Part shown: piece by piece, positions 17,736-63,733 of the stretch
Numbering within the stretch: the stretch's first letter is position 1
Layout: every line of letters starts with the position of its first letter
DNA from: Pseudogymnoascus verrucosus
Lineage: Eukaryota
DNA length: 64,000 nucleotides
Strand: one strand, 5' to 3'
Assembly: GCA_001662655.1 (NCBI GenBank)
Contig: KV460215.1
The notes under the pieces: generated by a model
Database searches by the model: none
Told to the model about the DNA's origin: nothing
The model's input: only the letters and a program-made list of their open reading frames with translations
Position numbers and translations under genes: made by a program

Positions 17736-20700
17736 ATGTCGAGCACTATTCCCACAAACCCAAACGCACAGACCGTGGCAGCGTTGTTGCCCAAGCTCCA
17801 AGATCCAGACCCGGACTATCGGTACATGTCGCTGAACGATCTGTTCCAAGTCCTCACCATAGGTCGCCCGGATTTCTTATACAATGACTACAACACCGCT
17901 GCCAGAGCAGTAGACGGCATCATCAATACGTTAGACGACCAGAATGGCGAAGTCCAGAATCTGGCTATCAAATGGTGAGATCCCCCCACCCGAAACACCC
18001 ATTCCATCCTAACACTATTGGCAGCCTTGCACCCCTCGTTACTAAAATCCCAAACACGATGCTGGCACCTCTTATCGAAAAGCTCTCCAGCCTCACCACT
18101 GAGAATTCCGTTGACAACTCTATCCCAGCCACTGCGCTCCGCATGGTCGTCATTACCCTCCCTCGCCCAGTCCCGGGTGTGGCTCCTACAAAAGAAGTCA
18201 TTGAAGCATATACTGCAATGAGCCGTGTTCTCATCCCCAGGCTTATTGGACATCTTGTTGTTGCCCCATCCGGGCGTTCGAACCAGCCAGCGCCGCCTGG
18301 GATGCTTCAGATCGGCTCCAAGAAGGAGGTGGACGCTGAGGCAGTAGACGTCTTGATCGAAGTTGCCAGGTGCTTTGGTCCCATGTTGCAGCAGCCTGAA
18401 GTTGCAGCGTTGCAAGAAGCAATCGTTGGAATAATCGAGAATGAAAAGGCCAGCTCGGTCGTCAAGAAACGGGCCGTCGTGGCCATTTCTATTCTGGCGG
18501 TTTACCTTTCGGACAGTTCTCTCAGCGCCTTCATTCAACATCTTATTGAGAGCTTCAGAAATGTGCACATAACTCCCATCCAGCAACGACTATACATCAC
18601 CATTCTCGGCTCGATGGCTCGGTCGATTCCCCTGCGCTTCGGCCCTTACCTGAAGGGCATTGCTCCATTCGTCCTGTCTACGCTAAGCCAGCAAGAGCTC
18701 GATAACCAGCTCGAAGAAGCAGCTGATGATGGTGAGCCAAACCCAGAAGTTGATGATGTGAGGGAGGCCGCGCTTGTGGCTCTCGAAGCATTCATCTCCT
18801 CATGTGGCAACGAGATGCGATTGTACACTGAAGAGATAATTTCTTCGGCAATACGCTTTCTCAAATACGACCCCAATTATGTCGATGACGATGAGGATGA
18901 TGAGGAGATGGGCGGAACACAGTCCAACGATGACGATGACAGCGTTGGCGACGACGATGATTTTGAAGACGATGCCGGATTTGATGACGACGATGATGAT
19001 GCAAGCTGGAAAGTGCGGCGTTGCGCCTCCAAGGTGCTATACACTCTGATCGGAACGAGAGCTAGTGGAGACCTTCTCGAAGATGGGACATTGTACTCGC
19101 AAGTTGCACCCGTGCTGATTAGCCGGTTTAATGAGAGGGAACAGAACGTTCGACTGGAGGTCATTTCGGCCATGGCTCTGCTTATTCGAAAGACAGGAGA
19201 AGGCTCGGCCGCTCTTCAGGCTAACGAAGGGAGTCTGGACTACATGTCCCAGCCGACGAGTCGTAAGCGTAGACGAGACAGCTCGATAACCTTTGATACC
19301 AAACCTCTGATTACAATGTCAGCTGGGCTTACTTCCCCCATCATCGAGCCTCTCCCTCCATCGGGACCGAGAGCAGACCTGTCCAGGCTCAGCCCAACTT
19401 TAGTCAAGGCAGTGGCGAAGCAACTCAAGGGCACTTCTATTCCCACGAAGCAAGCGGTAATCAATCTTCTCGCGAACCTTGTGTCCGTGCAGCATGGTGG
19501 CCTTTCAGAGTACTTTTCTCAGCTCGTCGACCCTGTAGTCGATGCCATCAAGGGCACGGGTGCTTCTTCCGCGCCATCCTCGGGCGTAGTCACTACTGGC
19601 TCTGCTTCGGCAACAGTCAGCACACTGCGCGTCTCTGCTCTCAAACTCATAAGCGACCTTTGCGAGACACACTCTTCTAGCGTCCTTCAGCCTTTCCTCC
19701 CAAAGATCGTTCCGGGGGTTGTGTCTGCCGTCAAGGATCGATACTACAAGATTTCAGCAGAAGCTATCGTGACAGTTGAGCAGCTCGTAAAGGCTTTGAC
19801 GCCACCTCGGTCACGCATGGTCGGTGCCAAACATCAAACCGATATACAGAATCTCTACGATGTCATAATAAACCGCGTTTCTTCCAACGATGCCGATCTG
19901 GAGGTTCGATCCCGCGCTATCCACGCTCTCGGTATCTTGCTGGCGCGCACTACCAGTGGCGATGGTGCCAAGCTTCTCTCCCAGGATGATAGGGATGAGG
20001 CTTTACAGCTGCTGAAGGATAGATTGAAGAACGAGACTACCAGGATTGCATCGGTTCGTGCCATCGACACTGTTGCTGCCTTGAGCACTGGCAAGGATCA
20101 GCTGAAGCCGGACTGGGTCCGAGAGGTATCCTTGGAGCTAGCAGCCCAGCTTCGAAAGGCCGACCGCTCTCTTCGTGGCGCAAGCTTAGCTGCCCTCAAA
20201 AACCTGATCGTCACGCCGGCGGCGAGAAATAGCATGGACCATTCCACCATAAGTGACCTGGTCGCATCTCTCTTGCCTCTGCTGAACACAAACGACCTCC
20301 ACCTATTGGGTCCTGCTCTGCTTGTCACTGCCTACTTGGTTGAGGATGATGCCAAGACTGTCGTGTCTCCTGGTTTGAACAAGGCTCTTTGTGACCTTCT
20401 AATGACGCCTCTAGGAGGAGCCGTCCTCGATGCTTTGCTCGTACTGGTCAAGAATATTGCCGGCAAGGGTTCCGGTCAGCCTCTGATGGGCGGCCTCCTT
20501 CAAGAAGTCAGCATAAATGGAGATCCAACTGTCGTTGGCAAAGTCATCGGCACGCTTCTCGTATATGGAGGTCCTTCTGTTGGCGTCACTATAGATATGT
20601 TCATCCAAGAGCTTGATGGAAGCTCTGACGATATTCGGAAGAGTCTGGCCCTGTCTGTCCTGGGCGAGGCAACCCTTCGTATGGGGCCAAATTCGCCGTT

Positions 20701-54328: not shown

Positions 54329-57300
54329 TCAGATCTTCCCTGCAACCCACCACCACCACTCCCCAACGGTCCACCCTTCGATCCCCGTCCCAGGTGCAAC
54401 CTCTTTCAACGCATCCACCCCAAATGCCCACTCCAGCGCCAATCTTGCCTCCCATTCTTCCAGCGCCGGACTGAGCAGCCGTGTAACTTCCTTAGCCTCA
54501 ATACCCGGCCTCTGCATAATCGTCGCCAGCACTGCTCCCATGACCTTGCGCCACAAACCCGGGATAAGCTGATCGTTGATATCATACCACAGAGGCAGCG
54601 CCCCGTCGTGCGGTTTCGGCGGTGGGTTGTGCTGGACGGACAACATATTTGAGCGGATCAGAGGGTGTGTGTCATCATAGACGTAGGTATCCGAAGGCGA
54701 AATTTGGATATCAAACAGTAACTTGGTCTTATCCATCTTTTTGGTCTGGTAATTCCCCTCCGTCAACCCAAACTTATTCATTGGAATCCTGTGTCCAGTC
54801 TGAACGATCCGTTGCGCACTCTGTAAATTTGTCGTAGCAAGAATTTCTCCCTCGCTCGCCGTATATTCCAGCATAACTATCTCGTCCTTCCTGAAAGCCT
54901 CATCGAGGCACGCCTTGTAAGCTACCGCCTCATTATAATGAGCTTGTGTCAGAATACGCGATAGAGCCGCCGTAAGGACATCGGTGGCTTCAAAGCCGCG
55001 GCCTGGCGCCGGACGGCCTTTGTTTACTGGCATGATGACCTTTGCTTCGACCAGTTGCGAAATCGCGTCGCGCATGATTTCTGGGCCAAGACCCCGTAAT
55101 TTAGCGGATGCAGTGGTGGCATTAAAGCTATCGACTGGTGTAAGCGTGCTTGCTCTTGCCCATGATCGAGCGATGCGGAGCATGTCGTCTTGAGGACCTT
55201 GGGGCGCCTCAGGAGGTTGTGAGGCTGGCAATGTTAAGTTGCTAGCGGATGCGTGAGCAATACGCTTATGCACTGGCAGTGTACTAGAGAAATAAGAATC
55301 CCTCCAGTTTTTCTCTTCGACGTCCTGCAACTCATACATCTCATCGAATTTCTCTCGAGTACTTGGCAAGTCCACGGTAGCCGTCCTGACGAGCTGTGTG
55401 CGTTTCATAGCCCAGTCGATAAGTGCATCCCAATCGTAATCAAGGAGATGGTCGTAGTCCATTCTAGGAAGTTCCCCAGACTCATAAGCAGCTAAATACG
55501 CCGTCTGGAAATCTTCCGTCATTTTGATTAATCGCTTTGCATGTTTATCCGCGAGAACATTGAAGTGCCGACGAACCCAGTTCATGGTACACTGTGGAAA
55601 GAGTCTTGATACGAGGACCCAGTCTACACTCTGGTCAAGGCCGCCAGTCAGGGTCCGTATAACGACAACGGCGACGATGAGGCGGTCATCAAGAGCCTCA
55701 GAGATAACGGTCCGTTCATTTGTACGTTTACGGTGACCGGATATTCCGTGATAGGAAATAGATACCTCGAAATCGGGATCGTTGAGAGGTATATCGAGGC
55801 CTTGGATATCAACAGGCAAAGACGTGTGGCGACGCACGCGGAAGTCTTTCGACTGAGCTGCACGGCGATAAGGCCGTTTGAGGCGGGGCTGGCCGATCAA
55901 CTGGCTGCCAGGCAACTTTCGCTTGCGTGAGAGATAATCAAAGTCAGATTTCGTGGCCTCCACCATTCCAAAGAATGATGAGGCTTGTTCTGTTCTCTGG
56001 CGTTTTTGATAGCCCCGTCTAGGTTTGCTCTTTACAGTCGTCGAAAGGAGTTGTTGTACGGGATCGACAACAAGAAGTTCGTAAGGCAGAGTTTCCAAAG
56101 TAAAGGAGTTATCAGCCAGCCAGGATAGGGTAGCTGGTTCGGTGGTTTGAGGTCCCCTTAGCTCTTCAGTAGTGTGGTTGATATAAATATGGTCTGGCGC
56201 AATATTTCCCATCCCCAATAAAGTTCTGCCTCCGATGGTTTGTTCCCATTCTTCTGTTGTAATGATTTTGGCCATGAAATCTGTGTATGAGGATCCTTCC
56301 CTCGTGTCGAGCTCAAACCCTTTAGCTTTCATCTGAGACATGATGCTTTCAAGGTCCTTGGGCAGCATATCTTTGAACGAGGCAGCAGATCTTGAGAACA
56401 GACCTTTGGATGCTGCCCAGGAGCCCACATCTGCTGCTGCGATAGAACTGTCAGGGGTACCGATCCTTTCAACTGGTGATTTACTGGGAAGACTAAAGCC
56501 CGGTGCTTGTTGTATAAGAGAATCGAGCCCAGGGTTGTTAGTCCACTCTGGCATGACAGACTTTGTCCTCAATCTGCTGTCAGGGAGTGGTAGTGGCTTG
56601 AAGTCGGGCCAGGGCATCTCTTCGCCTGTGACCGTAAGGCCATACGGACGCAGGTCGTCCGACTCATCGTCCCATCTAACAGATTTTGGTTTCTTTGGAG
56701 TAAGCCCCCCTGAAAAATTTGACCCTCGCCCATGATTCCAAGAACCTACGGTGTCCTGGCCGAAGTTTTGTCCTGCAAGCTGGTCTCTGGCTCCAATTCT
56801 CGTCTTGCGCTTTGATTTGTGAACGATAACTGGGCGGAATATGTTACCAGGTGACTTCAGCTGTTGCTGGACTGCTCCACGCTTTGCTGACATGACATGA
56901 ATGGCGTTGACGCCGTGACCAAATGGCCGGAAAGTCCAAGCTGGGTTGTCGGCGGTTTGCATATAAGTCACTGGCTCTGGTAAGTCGGATTTGCGAATAT
57001 GGATCTTTGCCTGCATCTGCTTTGATGGTCCTTTGCCCCATGACCCATCTGTGTTTTGGAGGAACGATGGTGCTGTTTGCCAACCATGGAGCTGAACATA
57101 GTCTGCCTGCTTTTGCTCTTCAGCAGTGAGAGGTTGCTTTTCAGGTTCAACATCTGAAGATATGAAGTCAGAACCCGACTCATCTAAAGACTCGCCTACC
57201 ACATCGCCATTTAAACGTCGGTCTTTTAATGTGACGCCCTGAGCCTTCAGCGACGCCCATAGCGCTTTCATTCGTGATGACTGTCCTTCTCTGAAGCTAT

Positions 57301-60300
57301 CACTACGTCTGTGATACAAGCCATTCTTCCGTCTCCTTCGTCGTCGTCCCATATAATACTCCACGTCAGTCTCGCCCTCAGCATCTGGGTCAGGGATGTA
57401 GAATGGCGCATTGAGAAGAACAATCTCATTCTCGTCATCCGAATCTTGTTCTCCGTTGTTTGTCGTTTGCTTTTGTGCTTCCACAATACTTGATATAATA
57501 CGGGCTTCTTTCAAGGCCTCGGCTTCCTTTGCAGCGCGAATCCTTGGATCCTCTTCCCTTTCTTTCGCAAGCATGCGCCTCTGTCGTTCTTCTTCGGAAG
57601 GTCTCGACTCTCTGGCCTCGAGCATTGATAGCACCGCCTCAGGTGGCTCAAAGTCAGGCGGACAGTAATACCTCGGAAACACCTCTTTAATATTTGCTTT
57701 GATATCATTTACCAAAGGGCTCAGTGGATTGACCCCCTTTTTTGTGACAACAGTGCGCGTACGCATACGGCCGGTTCGATCTCTGAACGAGAACTTGACC
57801 TTTGTTACAAAGCCACCGTCTTCGAGAAGCCCGACAGCCTGATTGCAGTACTTGTAATCTTGGATCAGAGAGTCTGGGTACTTCTGCATCCACGCTGCAT
57901 GCATTGCAAACCACAGCCCTTGGTCGCCTGGGAACGCACCGCCGTTCGCTTCTAACAGATCTAGTATAACTTCTTTACGCTTCTGAGTGATTACCGGGCC
58001 TGTTCTCCTCTCGATGTTGTCCCTGTCATTTGCCGTTGGGTATTTCAGTTTCATCCTGGCGGCGAGCATGGCGCGTTTCTCAGGAGTAGCAAATTTTGAA
58101 GGGCTTTCATCAATAGCTGTCACGGCCGCCGTATCGGCTGGGATTGGAGTTCCAATTCGATGCGAAGGCAAGCTCTGAGCCCCAGGTTCTTCGAGGTTAG
58201 TGGTTTCTCTGAGCTCTTCGGATTCGACGGTCTGTTTACGACGATATTGTCGGCGCTTTGGGCGACCACCATCGTCATGAAGTGACCAACCACCATCTTG
58301 ATCCCTTTGAGCACTGACAAGAGCAGCTTCTTCTGGTGTAAGATCACCAAGGGCAAACGATTCCCTGCTTCTCTTTCTTCTCTCTTCGGGTGGAGGAGGT
58401 GTCGGAGGCCGAGTCCAATTTGGATTGCAAGTCACCTTGGCCTTGGTCTTGTGGTACTTGACGCCTTCGTAATTCTTCCAGGCGCCTTCACATTGGTCGC
58501 ACTTGAATGGTTTCGGGCCGCCATCCGGCACTGGGAATGCCCAGGGTGGTAATGGTATTCTCTTGTTCTTTGGTTTTTTCCTTCGCATCGCTGTGCCAAT
58601 TTTGGCTACGAAAGTTGTGGCAGCCTCAATCGACGTAGGATCGACGAGGAACTTAACTTCTTTTTCCGCGGTCTCGTCAGATTCCTCTTGAGTTTCTTTA
58701 ACCACAACAACTATCTCGGAAGTTTCTGTGTCTACGGCAGGAAACACCGAGATTTTGGATATTTCGATCATCCATTTAGATGTCAAGTCTTCTGTATCGA
58801 GTGGAAGGAATTCAAGTTGTGTCTCGATGTCATTCAGACACAGATTTCCAGCAATACCATCCTTGGAAGCAGAAATATGAATCAGTTCCTCTGCATCATC
58901 TCTGCCGGTTGGAATACCGGCCGTGTCCACATCCATTGCCTCTCCTTCATCAGGTAATGCAGTCTCATTACCATTCGCAACAGCTTCGGGGGCAGCGGCT
59001 TCGACCTCAGCTACAGGCTGGCTAATTATTTCCCCCTCGGGTAACAAAATATCCCCCTGAGCATTAGCTGAAGACTCAGGAGCTGTAGATTCGATTTCAG
59101 CCACAAGTTGGCTGGTCACCAGATCTTGGTGATCAGAGGCAGCTGGGGAAACTTCACGTGGAGGTGAGCTAGGGGAACGAATCGCAGCAGTGTATGGCGA
59201 CTTGTATAGCTTCGATTGAGCTGGTTGAGAAATGGACGAAGCCTGCAACACTGGAGACACCTGTGCTTCAGGCGAAACTGCTTTAGAAGGTCCAGCTGGG
59301 CCGTCAGTAGTGGTGTATGGCGATTTGTACTGGGGCGTAGCGCTTGGGTCGAGGCCAATCTGCAAAGTTTTGGGTGCCGGCGTCCCCATACTTTGCGGCT
59401 GGGGCGCTGGCGTTTTGGAAATTTCTGGTGACTTTGCATATGGCGAGTTGTATCCTCTAGCATATGGTGATACGTAGGCGGATGGTTGCGAGGAGTCTGG
59501 TACTTGGGGGCCATTGGCTACCGCCGCCTTGGTCTGGCTGCTAAGAGATGCAAGCCTTGGGACGGACGGTGTTATGGGAACGTTTGGATACGGCGATGTA
59601 TACGTAGACGTTGAGATAGTTTCTTTTCTAGAACTGTCGATCAAGTCTTTCTTTGTAATCTCTTCACTGTATTGGGCATTGGCAACTGGTGTTGCTACGG
59701 CTGAAGCAACTTGATCTTCAAGGTTGTCATCGCCTGCGGCCTCTGGGATTTGGGATATGACTTCCTCGGCCTCGACGGAGGCTTTATCTTGTGCCTTCGG
59801 AGGCCTTGGAGCTAAATCCAACTCCTTTAATCTCTTAGACTTAATCATCATCATCATCCGCTTTGGTTTTCGCCCCCTTTGGAGCAATCCTGACGGCCCT
59901 CGAATCTGTTCCGGAACTGGAAAATCGGGAAGGTCAAAATAAGCACCAGGAATACCAGCCTCTCGTTCAAGCTGGTCATTGGACGTGTACGTGACTGTCT
60001 TGGCTTCCGTTTTCCTAGGTCTGCCTCGGGGCCTCTTTGGAGTTTCGGGCTGTGATGGCATAGTAGTTCTAGACGGCGCCATTGTAGAAGGCCCCTTGAT
60101 AAGAGTGCTGGGTCGTGCTGCCTTAGTTTGCTTTGAACTTCCTTCTCCCTTTCGAGGAACAATATCTGTGGTTGCTGTGCGTTGTTTTGTTTGTGGCGTA
60201 TCTGTACTTGCAATACCAAGCGACGACGCCAAAGGTTGAGGCGCAACAGTTGGATAATTGGAAACATCGGATATTCGTCCACTCGTTTGTGTAGGTCGGT

Positions 60301-62260
60301 GCAAAACAGTCGCGCCATCCCAGGATGATTCTCCGTTACTAACACGTCTCTCAAAGCTTGACATCATATAGTACTGGTAAATTTCCCTGCCGGACTTTGT
60401 AATAGGCTCCCGCACAATGCGTATCGTCTGTTTATCCGAATTCGACGCCGAGCTAATGTCAAACGGTGAAAACAGCGCAACAAGATCCTCATTTGATACA
60501 GTCTCGGCCTCTGCAAGTAAATCCTCTTCCGAAATTCCCTCATCTCCAGGGTTGGTTTCAATAACTTGCTCAATGATGTCCTCCACCGATTCTTTGGTAG
60601 TGGTCATGGGTGCTGGCTTTTCAGAAGCGTCATACGCTTCCTCGTCTTCTCCATCAAAGAAGTATCCATCAGACACTTCGCTTTCCTCGGCTTCGACATC
60701 ATCGAATGCATCTTCACTCAAGTCTTCCACAGCATATTTGCTAGGCTTACCCTTTGTGCGTTTCCTTGCTCTTGGCTTATGCTCGCTCTTTGGCTTCGCT
60801 CTCGATGGCCTATTCTTGAAACCTTGGCTCGTGAGTCTCTTTTTGAAATGAGACCACTCATCTTCCGTAGGATCCCGGAGAAATTTTATGCAATCTTTGA
60901 AAATCTTTGGATTGTTTGGCAGGAGAGCGCTGACTCGTTTACAGACTTTAAGCTCGAAAAGCTTACGCATAATCCGTTCCAGAGTCTTCCTTAGTCGAAG
61001 ATCATTGATATTCATCTTTGCTAATATGTGAGTACGTCGGATCACTCCCCATGCACGCATAATGGCCACTGCAGTGCGGGCGACCATCTCAATGTCAACG
61101 AATAGGCCGGACCAGTGCTCATGACCAGGGACGGGCTTGAGATCCTGGGTCAGCGTGCTTGCCGGCAGCTCAGATGGGTTGATAATATCTCGTTGCGCAG
61201 CATTTGCCTCCAAGAAAATCTTATGCGTGAGAAGGCTAGTCTTTTGGTTGAAAGCTAGTACCTGCTTTTTCTCGATATACCCCTTTTGCGCAAGGAAATC
61301 TGTGCGCCGTGGAACAGATCTTTTATCTTGCCCGGTGGTATTGCGAGCCTCTGCTTGGAGTATCCCCTTATTTCCTGCGGCTGCAATGGCGAGCAGTAGC
61401 TGCCACTCGGAAAAGGGGAGCTTCGTCTTATCCACATCATGGCCGGTGAGAACAAGCCATAAGCGTCTTTGATTGACATGGACTCGAGGCTGATACTCGA
61501 TAGTTGGGACCCCTGTTTCTGCTTCCGGTGGAGGCTCGAGAAGAAGAGCAGGGTCGATTGCATTGTTGAGTTCATCTTGGGCTTCCTCTTTTATAGGCAG
61601 GGCCTCTGCTTCGTCCAAAGACAGCTCTCTTCCTTCGCCGACAATGATATCATCACGTGCAACCAAAGTATCCCAGACTCTGGCCTGGAAGCTGCGGTCA
61701 ATGATGGGCCTTTGTGATACTTCAGGTTCCGGTACGGGAGTCAGGAATTGCTCTCCATTTTCATCACCGACATCTTCATGCTTGGCGTCGAGTTTGGTCT
61801 TCTCCAGGTTATCATAGAAGGTCTCAATGCGACCGAGCAACTCAGAGACAGAGAGGCCTATGAATCAGGTTAGAAAAGTTCCGCATATCGATTTCCAAGC
61901 TTGGCAAAAAATATAATAGCAAAAGCAAAAACGGTCCTGCGAGGGGATTGAACCCCGCACTACGGGGCTATGATAATGTGTCAGGAGCGACAGCTCCCAT
62001 CAGACCAAGTAGCCACATAATTTGTGCACTGCCCAGAAATCCGCGAGTGTATACTCCACCAATGGAATACCATATAAATTCATGTTTATTCCATCCCTGA
62101 TGAGGGCTTGTGATAATAGCTAGACCTTCCCCTCCAGCAAGGCTGACGAACGGACTCGCAAGGCTGTGGGCGCATTACCTTTATTCCAATCATTGATGGC
62201 AAGCTCCTGGACCAGGAAGTCAATCAGGCCCTCAAAATCATCGGCTTCTGAGTTCTCCAT
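54329..62260 (-). CDS. TFC3: RNA polymerase III transcription factor TFIIIC B-box-binding subunit (Tfc3/Sfc3/GTF3C1-like)
   Basis: B-block winged-helix region LLLAIAAAGNKGILQ..TGQDKRSVPRRTDFLAQKGYIEK, AT-hook-like KRPRGRPRK, and a Sfc3-like C-terminus (RTLTGGLDQSVDW..GWTVGEWWWW). Exon 1 62260-62179, intron 62178-61858, exon 2 61857-54329. Confidence 0.88.
61927..61931 (-). terminator. Pol III-type oligo-T terminator after the tRNA-like element
   Basis: TTTTT one base after the 3' acceptor strand, followed by further T4/T6 runs. Confidence 0.55.
61933..62071 (-). tRNA. Degenerate tRNA-like element / Pol III internal promoter in TFC3 intron 1 (probably not a functional tRNA)
   Basis: A-box-like TGGTGGAGT (62061-62053), B-box GGTTCAATCCC (61954-61944), D-stem GGTG/CACT, imperfect acceptor stem (GGTATTCC/GCAGGACC) and anticodon stem (GCGGA/CCCGT), ~70-nt insert at the tRNA-intron position. 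Confidence 0.65.
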
Positions 62261-62704
62261 CTTGCAAAGCGGTTTGCGATCATTCTTAGCGTCGTGGAAA
62301 AGGTTTCTGTGAAAATGGTTCCGGAGGTCGAACTCGAGCGCTTTTGGTGGTTTGATGTGAATTTGAAGCCGTTATGCCACTTTTTTCTTGTGGCGGATTT
62401 TAGGCGAGGCCCAGCCATTGCATTTGCAGTACATTCATAACTATCACGTGACATTCCACTTTTCAGCACCAGCAATCTATCATGAGAATATGAAGAGGAT
62501 ATTAATAATAGATCTTAAAGCTCCAGATAAATGGCCTACATGCTCGATTAGGGACGTCTGGATAATTTCGTGGCACTCGAAGTTAATTCTCGGACCGGCA
62601 CAGACTCTACGAGGAAAATATTACAGGAACCCCTAAGTTTGAGATCGAATAACTGCAATGATATTTGTCCTGACCCATGAATTTCTATATTTTGAATCTG
62701 CCTC

Positions 62705-63733
62705 TCAGTCCTTCTTACTCCTCAGAGCCGCCGCCTCGCGGTTTTCCTTCATCATTTGCCTGTACCCTTCAACAACGCTCTGTCTCACCTCACCCAACTC
62801 CTCTCTCCTCCTCAAACTTCCTGACGCTTTCGGCACATCCTCGACCTCCACTCTTGCCCCTCTGACCTTGAATTTCTCCTTGGGTATCTTTGTAAATGTC
62901 GGTGGCGCTTGGTAAACATCGCTAAGTCTGTTCGGGCCTTCATTCCTCGTTTTCTTCAATATTGCCCATGGGTCGTCGTTTCCATCATCAATCTCTCCAA
63001 TCGCCTTCTTCTTCTTTCCCTTTCCATTCTTTTTCTTCCCAGTCTGGACAGTATCCTCAGGGTCGAGTTTCCACTTCACTCTTCCCTCGTCGTCCAGCTC
63101 CTCTTCCTCAGCCAACTCCATGGCCTCCTGCCGTCTATCCTGTATCTTTTGCTCCTGTTCACGCCATTCCGCATACATTCTATGCATTCTCTTCTCTGTC
63201 TTGGTTCGCCCCACCTTCAACCCTAATGGATCCTTGCCGTCCTTCCCAGTCTTATTGATCAACCCAGAAATCGGCAGTGCGGCGTCCACCCTAGCGGAGA
63301 ATTCTGACATCTTCTCTCCCGGCTTAATCCTTGGTATCTCAACCTGTTCAGGATCGACCTTGGGTGCCTGCGGCTTATTCCCCTTCTCTGCTGCCGCCGC
63401 AGCCTGCTTTTGCTTTTTCGTCGGCTTTATGCCATCGTCAAGGCCTGAAGGGAGCTTCTTGCCCTGCTGAAACATCATCAGGCGCGCAAATGCCCTCGGA
63501 GTATCATCCGCATCATCTCTGCGCTTCCTCTTGTTTGGCTTCCGCGCCGGTGCGCTATCCGAGCTGAATATGCCATTCGATTTTGCGCCTCTGGCAACTG
63601 CGAGTGGTTTTGCGACTTCGGATGGAGGGAGATCGGCGCTGCACTCATTAGTATTGTGATAGGTAGAAGAAAATAGAGCAGCTCACGTTAGACCGTCATC
63701 CTCAGCTTTACTGCGCTTGTGTTTCGTCGGCAT
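62705..63733 (-). CDS. Conserved Lys-rich, probably nucleolar protein (CCDC137-like)
   Basis: MPTKHKR, DLPP, DDTPRAFARLM, PRIKPGEKMSEFSARVD, DDPW and R..VVEGYR..M motifs; one intron ~63686-63639. Confidence 0.75.

Follow-up and report, generated by a model that had tools for sequence, protein, structure and literature searches.

The question raised by this locus is whether the gene for the B-box-binding subunit of TFIIIC, a factor that sets tRNA-synthesis capacity and also organises chromatin, is controlled through B-boxes of its own. The locus lies in a stretch of 64,000 nucleotides (nt) from Pseudogymnoascus verrucosus (contig KV460215.1 of assembly GCA_001662655.1; the whole stretch is hereafter referred to as the window) and contains the gene Tfc3/Sfc3, the first intron of which carries an exact B-box. 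To our knowledge, control of the TFIIIC level is known for one subunit gene in one yeast (TFC6, through ETC6), and this autoregulation was reportedly described by Kleinschmidt et al. in 2011. The initial annotation of the window interpreted the intronic element as a tRNA mimic serving as the sensor of a candidate autoregulatory circuit. We found that, in nearly all the Pezizomycotina sampled, a lone B-box (GTTCGAATCC) is located about 90 nt upstream of the ATG, with a second or alternative B-box in intron 1 in some lineages. This upstream B-box is the main conserved site and was missed by the initial annotation; the copy in the window (62333-62323) is off-consensus. These comparisons incline us slightly towards the view that the 5' end of Tfc3/Sfc3 carries TFIIIC-binding B-boxes through which TFIIIC would limit the expression of the gene for its own subunit. 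The question of whether other TFIIIC subunits are also autoregulated was posed in a 2012 commentary (PMC3334521).

A search with a B-block domain profile (alignment A1) yielded 80 metagenome loci encoding Tfc3 relatives, which fell into 55 clusters once upstream regions at least 90% identical had been merged. The counts anchored on the ATG used 49 non-redundant loci, the count of a 10-mer used 51 and that of the hexamers between -330 and -130 used 47. The nearest named proteins placed the loci in the Leotiomycetes, Sordariomycetes, Eurotiomycetes and Dothideomycetes, and many loci were not placed. On the gene strand, the hexamer GTTCGA was present between -160 and -40 from the ATG in 41 of the 49 loci (median position -92.5, interquartile range -100 to -85) and ranked first among all 4096 hexamers, for which the mean was 1.33 loci; the next-ranked hexamers overlap it. 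When counted in 120-nt bins, GTTCGA was found in these 41 loci at -160 to -40, in 8/49 at +80 to +200 (intron 1) and in 0–5 loci in every other bin, corresponding to a rate of 7.1e-3 per nt inside the -160 to -40 bin versus 3.4e-4 outside it. The four bases following GTTCGA, which were left free in the search, were A in 22, T in 25, C in 37 and C in 22 of 42 sites, and the upstream site extends to GTTCGAATCC, a canonical B-box. Within the 1.3 kb preceding the domain, 26 of the 51 representative loci had the longer motif GTTCRANNCC on the gene strand, and four more had it inverted. For comparison, the average over 300 motifs with permuted columns was 1.55 loci, and the highest count, 15, came from a permutation almost identical to the motif itself; in the flank controls, two loci were counted in the adjoining 1.6 kb upstream and one in the 3.7 kb downstream.

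Eight loci lacked GTTCGA on the gene strand between -160 and -40. Four of them had the B-box in inverted orientation (L005, L042, L055 and L058) and two had GTTCAA variants (L003 and L080); the sole B-box of L039 was found 12 nt into intron 1, and L004 had none. The inverted B-boxes (L042/L043, L055, L058/L059 and L005) are located at about -68 to -83 from the ATG, and a flank, GTTCGACTCCTGG, is conserved together with the inverted B-box in three lineages (all but L005). No enrichment of A-boxes was detected near the upstream sites, where the best matches were no better than in downstream or reverse-complement controls, and ARAGORN identified no tRNA gene in the 80 loci. The upstream sites therefore appear to be lone, ETC-like B-boxes: they agree with the B-box consensus, have neither an A-box nor a Pol III (RNA polymerase III) gene and occupy the 5' end of a gene that encodes a TFIIIC subunit. 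Their occurrence in both orientations argues for a DNA-binding site rather than for sensing at the RNA level, so that the RNA sensing or processing envisaged in the initial annotation is unsupported. The idea that a 5' B-box serves this gene as a feedback site, by contrast, gains strong comparative backing from the presence of a B-box in almost every sampled lineage, with the correction that the main conserved site is upstream, not intronic.

The first exon could be followed across these loci by its peptide, M..GLDELI..LL.EIAL.G..G, which was recognised in 75 of the 80. Within intron 1, B-boxes were found in L034/L037 (at both sites), L039 and L048/L050, with near-matches in L019 and L026; among about 8.3 kb of intron 1 sequence, the 10-mer was present in three non-redundant loci, versus about 0.2 expected by our own Poisson estimate. 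With GTTCGA in the 8/49 loci noted above, intron 1 is the second preferred place for the B-box in this gene family. Three outcomes that the initial annotation regarded as refuting, namely orthologous introns without a B-box, exon 1 not spliced to 61857 and a dispersed repeat, did not occur. The position of the intron itself is also well kept: in nearly all 75 loci it is in phase 1 and interrupts, behind its first base, the Gly codon that ends the N-terminal LDELI..LL.EIAL.G..G motif. Intron 1 is long for a fungal intron, with a rough median of about 186 nt and a range of 71–387 nt in 46 loci.

The identification of the gene in the window as that of the B-box-binding subunit was borne out. Its second exon, of ~7.5 kb, encodes a product of 2508 amino acids (aa), in which Pfam recognised B-block_TFIIIC (PF04182, E 1.7e-16, aa 150–215) and DUF6581 (E 5.5e-124). 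The relatives of this product are annotated as Tfc3, sfc3 or "B-block binding subunit of TFIIIC", the closest being proteins from several Pseudogymnoascus species (88–96% identity). Intron 1, proposed initially at 321 nt, is real and spliced. It has a GTAATG 5' end, a branch-like TTCTAAC and a TAG 3' end (GT..AG), and the join between exons 1 and 2 stays in frame, with the same junction (...AINDWNKG|LSVSELL) in four annotated orthologues (P0001–P0004). Furthermore, in a relative (organism J, run X15), a 7880-nt RNA-derived contig joins 62178 to 61856, "skips 321" and has GT..AG ends, confirming the predicted splicing of exon 1 to 61857. The 5' end of this contig, at 62415, lies 155 nt before the Tfc3 ATG.

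The upstream B-box has a counterpart in the window. Alignment with loci L001 and L002 identifies 62333-62323 as the orthologue of the near-universal upstream site; its sequence is GTTCGACCTCC, as in L001 (the nearest outgroup), and L002 (the next outgroup) has the canonical GTTCGATTCC. The variant is unchanged in relatives G, H and J and lies inside the X15 contig. The perfect B-box of the window species is the intronic one, which agrees with the B-box consensus GGTTCGANTCC. Two matches to GGTTCRANYCC were found in the window, versus 0.54 expected (128 kb, both strands). The other exact match, GGTTCGATCCC at 19903-19913 (+), is located within an open reading frame (ORF) of 1101 aa with a CAND1/TIP120-like coding sequence, and is most likely due to chance, since it is in coding sequence. 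Farther upstream, between -330 and -130 from the ATG, CACGTG (14/47 loci) was among the top hexamers, with CCCCAC (22/47) and CCCACC (20/47); these motifs lie upstream of the B-box and are probably ordinary Pol II (RNA polymerase II) promoter elements of Tfc3.

The intronic element was compared between relatives. Relative H (run X12) is 94% identical overall, with 38 differences and three gaps over 667 nt, and the differences within the intron are distributed as indicated in Table 1. The two changes in the 95-nt core fit hairpins, one converting a U.G into a C-G pair at 61962 and the other adding a base to a hairpin loop at 61991. By our own Poisson estimate, the probability of so few core changes is about 0.01–0.02, with boundaries defined post hoc. 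The intronic element thus appears to be conserved within the genus, as judged from one informative relative.

The tRNA-likeness of this element was not confirmed. ARAGORN, run with or without introns, found no tRNA in the whole window, and the Rfam tRNA model (RF00005) gave no match at E<=10 on the intron region. At a threshold of 80%, ARAGORN returned an 89-nt parse (62021-61933) unlike the tRNA-shaped element of the initial annotation (62071-61933), along with two other calls, no better, from that 700-nt region. Rfam gave a mascRNA-like match of 13.9 bits (gathering score 42.5) and a tRNA-Sec match of 12.8 bits (gathering score 47); both weak matches rest on the T arm and acceptor-like stem (61988-61933). 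The fold of 62021-61933 has an energy of -32 kcal/mol (z -2.0; 6/200 shuffles were equally good), and its minimum-energy form is a long hairpin plus a T-arm hairpin, with no cloverleaf. The A-box consensus is TRGCNNAGTGG. The A-box-like TGGTGGAGT proposed initially is present at 62061-62053 and fits this consensus at 7/9 specified positions by manual count, which is the level of the controls (typically 2–3 mismatches); the alternative TGGTCTGATGG, 53 nt upstream of the intronic B-box, has three mismatches, again the background level. A B-box with an oligo-T run just past the 3' end is a feature of tRNA genes that the element does display. The exact B-box (61954-61944), the TTTTT run (61931-61927) and the three hairpins named in the initial annotation are all in the sequence, but neither the detectors nor the A-box controls point to a tRNA mimic in which the cloverleaf has decayed around a preserved A-box. 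The initial observation was therefore partly confirmed and its interpretation partly supported.

Three candidates found no support on these grounds. For a tRNA gene or pseudogene, no cloverleaf was recognised by ARAGORN or the Rfam tRNA model. An RNA mimic sensor of the plant TFIIIA/5S kind is disfavoured by the lack of a tRNA-model match, the fold z-score, the lack of a cloverleaf and the presence of upstream sites in both orientations. Nor does the intron appear to contain a snoRNA or other known RNA: in the window, all Rfam families stayed below their gathering scores, and at E<=10 the two weak tRNA-like matches above were the sole ones of note; an STnc480 match on the other strand (21.9 bits versus a gathering score of 72) is noise.

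How these sites might act can be set out as follows. The motif, its position, its conservation, its single copy and the splicing of the intron are established directly. When abundant, TFIIIC would occupy the B-boxes at the 5' end of TFC3. Both sites are placed in the transcribed region because the mRNA contig of the relative starts at 62415, and both would thus follow the point where Pol II probably initiates: the upstream site would be in the 5' untranslated region (UTR) and the intronic site ~300 nt into the gene. Bound TFIIIC would hinder the initiation or passage of Pol II and less TFC3 mRNA would be made; because the sites appear to lie past the start, a roadblock or start-site interference would be the likely mode. 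The outcome would be negative feedback, like that of ETC6 at yeast TFC6. The intronic B-box looks like part of a remnant of a tRNA-type Pol III unit, and this element may additionally assemble TFIIIB and Pol III (through its TATA, A-like box and T5), in which case it would sense the whole machinery.

Parts of this scheme have precedents. tRNA genes and bound TFIIIC/TFIIIB act as roadblocks to Pol II in yeast, and this is the way in which we propose that an intragenic site ~300 nt past the ATG could lower the amount of full-length mRNA; the intronic element is, however, not a recognisable tRNA gene, and any pausing or premature termination here is hypothetical. The pre-mRNA of plant TFIIIA contains an exon mimicking 5S rRNA, an RNA-level device that works through alternative splicing. 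Both cases involve a gene for a Pol III factor bearing a copy of its own target, but the conserved unit here is a short DNA motif, also found inverted, and an RNA mimic is unsupported. In Saccharomyces cerevisiae, occupancy of ETC6, a B-box in the TFC6 promoter, by TFIIIC lowers promoter use, and the mRNA rises about twofold when binding is lost (PMC3334521, PMC4228148). Our sites resemble ETC6 in that a B-box stands alone, about 90–150 nt from the ATG, at the 5' end of a gene whose product is a TFIIIC subunit contacting the B-box, and in the expected logic of TFIIIC limiting its own synthesis. The differences are that the gene here is TFC3/tau138, not TFC6/tau91, in a different subphylum; that the site seems to follow the start of Pol II transcription, in the 5' UTR, and is found within intron 1 in the window and some other lineages; and that its sequence is conserved across classes. 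The ETC and COC sites of budding and fission yeast (PMC3395662) similarly consist of a B-box without an A-box or tRNA gene and presumably bind TFIIIC without Pol III. Unlike these scattered sites, those described here are tied to one gene across many lineages, and their occupancy is predicted. The intronic site of the window may depart from the ETC type, as an A-like box (with three mismatches) and a TATA are present.

Other explanations of the sites have to be weighed. The upstream GTTCGA might belong to another Pol II transcription factor and merely resemble a B-box, as G is not preferred at position 52, position 57 is G rather than A in 24 of 26 sites, and further promoter motifs (CACGTG, CCCCAC) lie alongside. 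We nevertheless consider this highly improbable: the free positions reproduce the B-box (T60 in 25/42 and C61 in 37/42), the gene with the motif encodes the reader of B-boxes, and the fact that we know of no other factor with a GTTCGA-type site also counts against it. The intronic element, for its part, might be neutral, left over from the 3' portion of a decaying tRNA gene or gene fragment that long ago entered a long intron; its B-box would then survive without a role, and the upstream site alone would matter, if any. The failure of the tRNA finders, the degenerate counterpart in L001 (GGTTCAACTGT), the lack of significant similarity to the L001 and L002 introns and the background level of the A-box-like motif fit such a relic, which is unlikely but deserves serious attention. 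It sits less well with the rarity of the exact 11-mer (0.54 expected in 128 kb, both strands), with the location of the B-box in the one gene whose product reads B-boxes, with the status of intron 1 as the second GTTCGA hotspot elsewhere (8/49 versus 0–5) and with a core far less changed than the intron flanks in relative H. It is extremely improbable that the element belongs to a dispersed, tRNA-derived family of short interspersed nuclear elements (SINEs), the repeat origin that the initial annotation had left open. A B-box with a T run is the usual head and terminator layout of SINEs, but among the 88,839 records (32.7 M letters) of the source run, one contig lay on the stretch at a likeness of at least 80%, and a blastn search for a second copy gave a best non-self E value of 0.38 in the 64-kb window and none in the 80 loci. 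On these counts we reject a dispersed SINE, and the element is single-copy in the source-run contigs, the window and the 80 loci.

The element could also be an active Pol III mini-gene, with a TATA at about -30, an A-like box, a B-box and T5, producing a tRNA-like RNA of ~95–100 nt, with either the RNA or the TFIIIB/Pol III complex being functional. Such a unit would be compatible with the feedback model and would turn it into a sensor of the whole Pol III machinery. The order of the motifs (TATACA, 46 nt, TGGTCTGATGG, 53 nt, B-box, and T5 two bases past the acceptor-like strand) speaks for it, and the intron 1 sequences of L001 and L002 (about 387 and 371 nt) have the same order, with a TATA block, 47 nt in both loci, an A-box-like motif (TGGTGCAATGG and TGGCCCAGCGG, respectively, which align with TGGTCTGATGG) and then a B-like GTTCAA (GGTTCAACTGT and GTTCAAGCCG) about 95–110 nt ahead of the 3' splice site. 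Furthermore, the A-box of L002 is one mismatch from the consensus, and the block kept in relative H roughly corresponds to the predicted transcript, its two changes fitting hairpins. The tRNA genes of Schizosaccharomyces pombe and plants use a TATA at -30/-24 (PMC7279448); the intronic order of TATA, A-like box, B-box and T run resembles that of these type-2 promoters, and the spacing from TATA to A-like box fits -30. The intronic element differs in its poor A-like box, in its lack of a cloverleaf and in that its transcript is a prediction. The pattern was, moreover, defined post hoc, the A-like box of the window is without the invariant A14, the transcript is predicted from sequence alone, and outside the genus its RNA sequence lacks conservation. 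In L002, no T run follows the B-like box, and the window and the 80 loci contain no tRNA gene that could illustrate TATA use in Pezizomycotina. On balance, we judge an active mini-gene to be quite unlikely.

Several observations weigh against feedback by TFIIIC through these B-boxes. The upstream copy of the window is off-consensus at C61, a position occupied by C in 37/42 sites and by T in 1/42, namely that of L001. In this closest outgroup, both the upstream site (GTTCGACCTCC) and the intronic one (GGTTCAACTGT) differ from the canonical B-box, and a perfect B-box is therefore not indispensable. The upstream site of the window is probably in the 5' UTR, a placement that rests on one contig end, and contigs cannot prove a start. 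The 49 loci are phylogenetically non-independent, and several related lineages have common promoter flanks. Conservation within the genus is judged from one relative, up to three of whose differences are unlisted. Beyond the genus, blastn with the intronic element gave nothing at E<=1, and k-mer sharing between the introns of the window and of L001 or L002 was not significant (81 and 52 of 1000 shuffles, respectively). The TATA/A/B composite was written after the three sequences had been viewed, and the homology of the element beyond the genus is only weakly suggested. Finally, we infer TFIIIC occupancy and feedback, as well as the sign of the effect and the recruitment of Pol III to the intronic unit. 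In the k-mer comparison, the only significant sharing of intron k-mers was between L001 and L002 (0/1000 shuffles), driven by the conserved block CAGCCTTGTTGGTGGGG; ARAGORN found nothing credible in these two introns.

If control of TFC3 by TFIIIC is nevertheless considered, the near-invariant B-box ~90 nt before the ATG across classes suggests an old and widespread self-control of TFIIIC through a subunit gene other than that of budding yeast. Self-regulation of TFIIIC via an ETC-type B-box is known; the subunit gene, the clade, the position past the start and in an intron, and the conservation across classes would be new. Literature searches found no B-box at TFC3/sfc3 and neither of the phrases "TFC3 promoter" and "sfc3 promoter", although most subscription journals were outside the search and absence is unproven. 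In model fungi, for example Aspergillus nidulans or Neurospora, the B-box could be mutated as a well-defined target of 10 bp. The loci also differ naturally in whether the B-box is only upstream, only intronic or at both places, inverted or degenerate, and these variants lend themselves to studying the interference of Pol III factors with Pol II. A bolder version, which we offer as doubtful but conceivable, would combine an ancient homeostat shared by filamentous ascomycetes, with TFIIIC repressing the gene for its DNA-reading subunit via a B-box just past the Pol II start, and a complete mini Pol III unit (TATA, A, B, T5) in intron 1 of Pseudogymnoascus, gating TFC3 by a TFIIIC-TFIIIB-Pol III roadblock. 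If true, this combination would be a sensor of Pol III activity within a Pol II gene, not gated by free TFIIIC alone.

Table 1. Features of the Tfc3/Sfc3 locus in the window and changes in relative H within intron 1
Feature	Position	Strand	Basis or observation
Exon 2 of Tfc3/Sfc3 (TFIIIC tau138, B-block-binding subunit), including the stop codon	54329..61857	-	ORF 54329-61864, Pfam, named relatives
Intron 1 of Tfc3/Sfc3, 321 nt, phase 1	61858..62178	-	Sequence, orthologue junctions, X15 RNA contig
Exon 1 of Tfc3/Sfc3, 82 nt, MENSEADDFEGLIDFLVQELAINDWNK(G)	62179..62260	-	Sequence, annotated orthologues, peptide motif kept across loci
T5 run, 2 bases past the acceptor-like 3' strand; possible Pol III terminator (putative function)	61927..61931	-	Sequence
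T arm and acceptor-like mini-helix (GCTCCTG ... CGGGG-TTCAATC-CCCuCG-CAGGACC)	61933..61988	-	Rfam mascRNA-like, 13.9 bits, E 2-6; weak
Intronic B-box GGTTCAATCCC, exact consensus	61944..61954	-	Motif match; unchanged in relatives G and H (X9, X12), which cover the site
A-box-like TGGTCTGATGG, 53 nt ahead of the B-box	61997..62007	-	Manual parse and ARAGORN low-threshold parse
TATACA block, 46 nt ahead of A-box-like TGGTCTGATGG	62048..62053	-	Spacing shared with L001 and L002 (47 nt in each); pattern defined post hoc, suggestive
A-box-like TGGTGGAGT of the initial annotation	62053..62061	-	Present; matches at chance level
Conserved intronic block CAGCCTTGCTGGAGGGG	62129..62145	-	Common to L001 and L002 as CAGCCTTGTTGGTGGGG
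Upstream B-box-like variant GTTCGACCTCC, 73 nt ahead of the ATG	62323..62333	-	Alignment with L001 and L002; in the -160..-40 class
TCACGTGA (E-box), about 185-190 nt ahead of the ATG	62444..62451	-	Sequence
Intron segment	61862-61904		Relative H: 10 substitutions
Intron segment	61905-62030		Relative H: 1 substitution (61962), three 1-nt indels (61906, 61920, 61991)
Intron segment	62031-62133		Relative H: 13 substitutions
95-nt core	62021-61927		Relative H: 2 changes versus 23 in the flanking intron segments

The 5' part of intron 1 contains a 17-nt block, CAGCCTTGYTGGWGGGG (window 62145-62129), that is clearly common to the window, L001 and L002. Its consensus is CAGCCTTG(C/T)TGG(A/T)GGGG, a partial upstream repeat of CAGCCTTG is also present there, and the block contains what we take to be a SYGGRG-like or AGGGG-like core.

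No other gene for a Pol III factor was identified in the 64-kb window by Pfam searches with 25 of the 39 stop-to-stop ORFs of at least 180 aa, which gave housekeeping families such as CAND1, porphobilinogen deaminase, Prp19, DHHC and similar. The upstream neighbour of Tfc3 (62708-63733, minus strand) encodes a small lysine-rich protein (MPTKHKRSKAEDDG...) with no Pfam match. The annotated models P0005 (2867 aa) and P0006 (2870 aa) start with the N-terminus of this neighbour and are ~330 aa longer than P0001–P0004; they resemble fusions of the neighbour with Tfc3 and are probably annotation artefacts.

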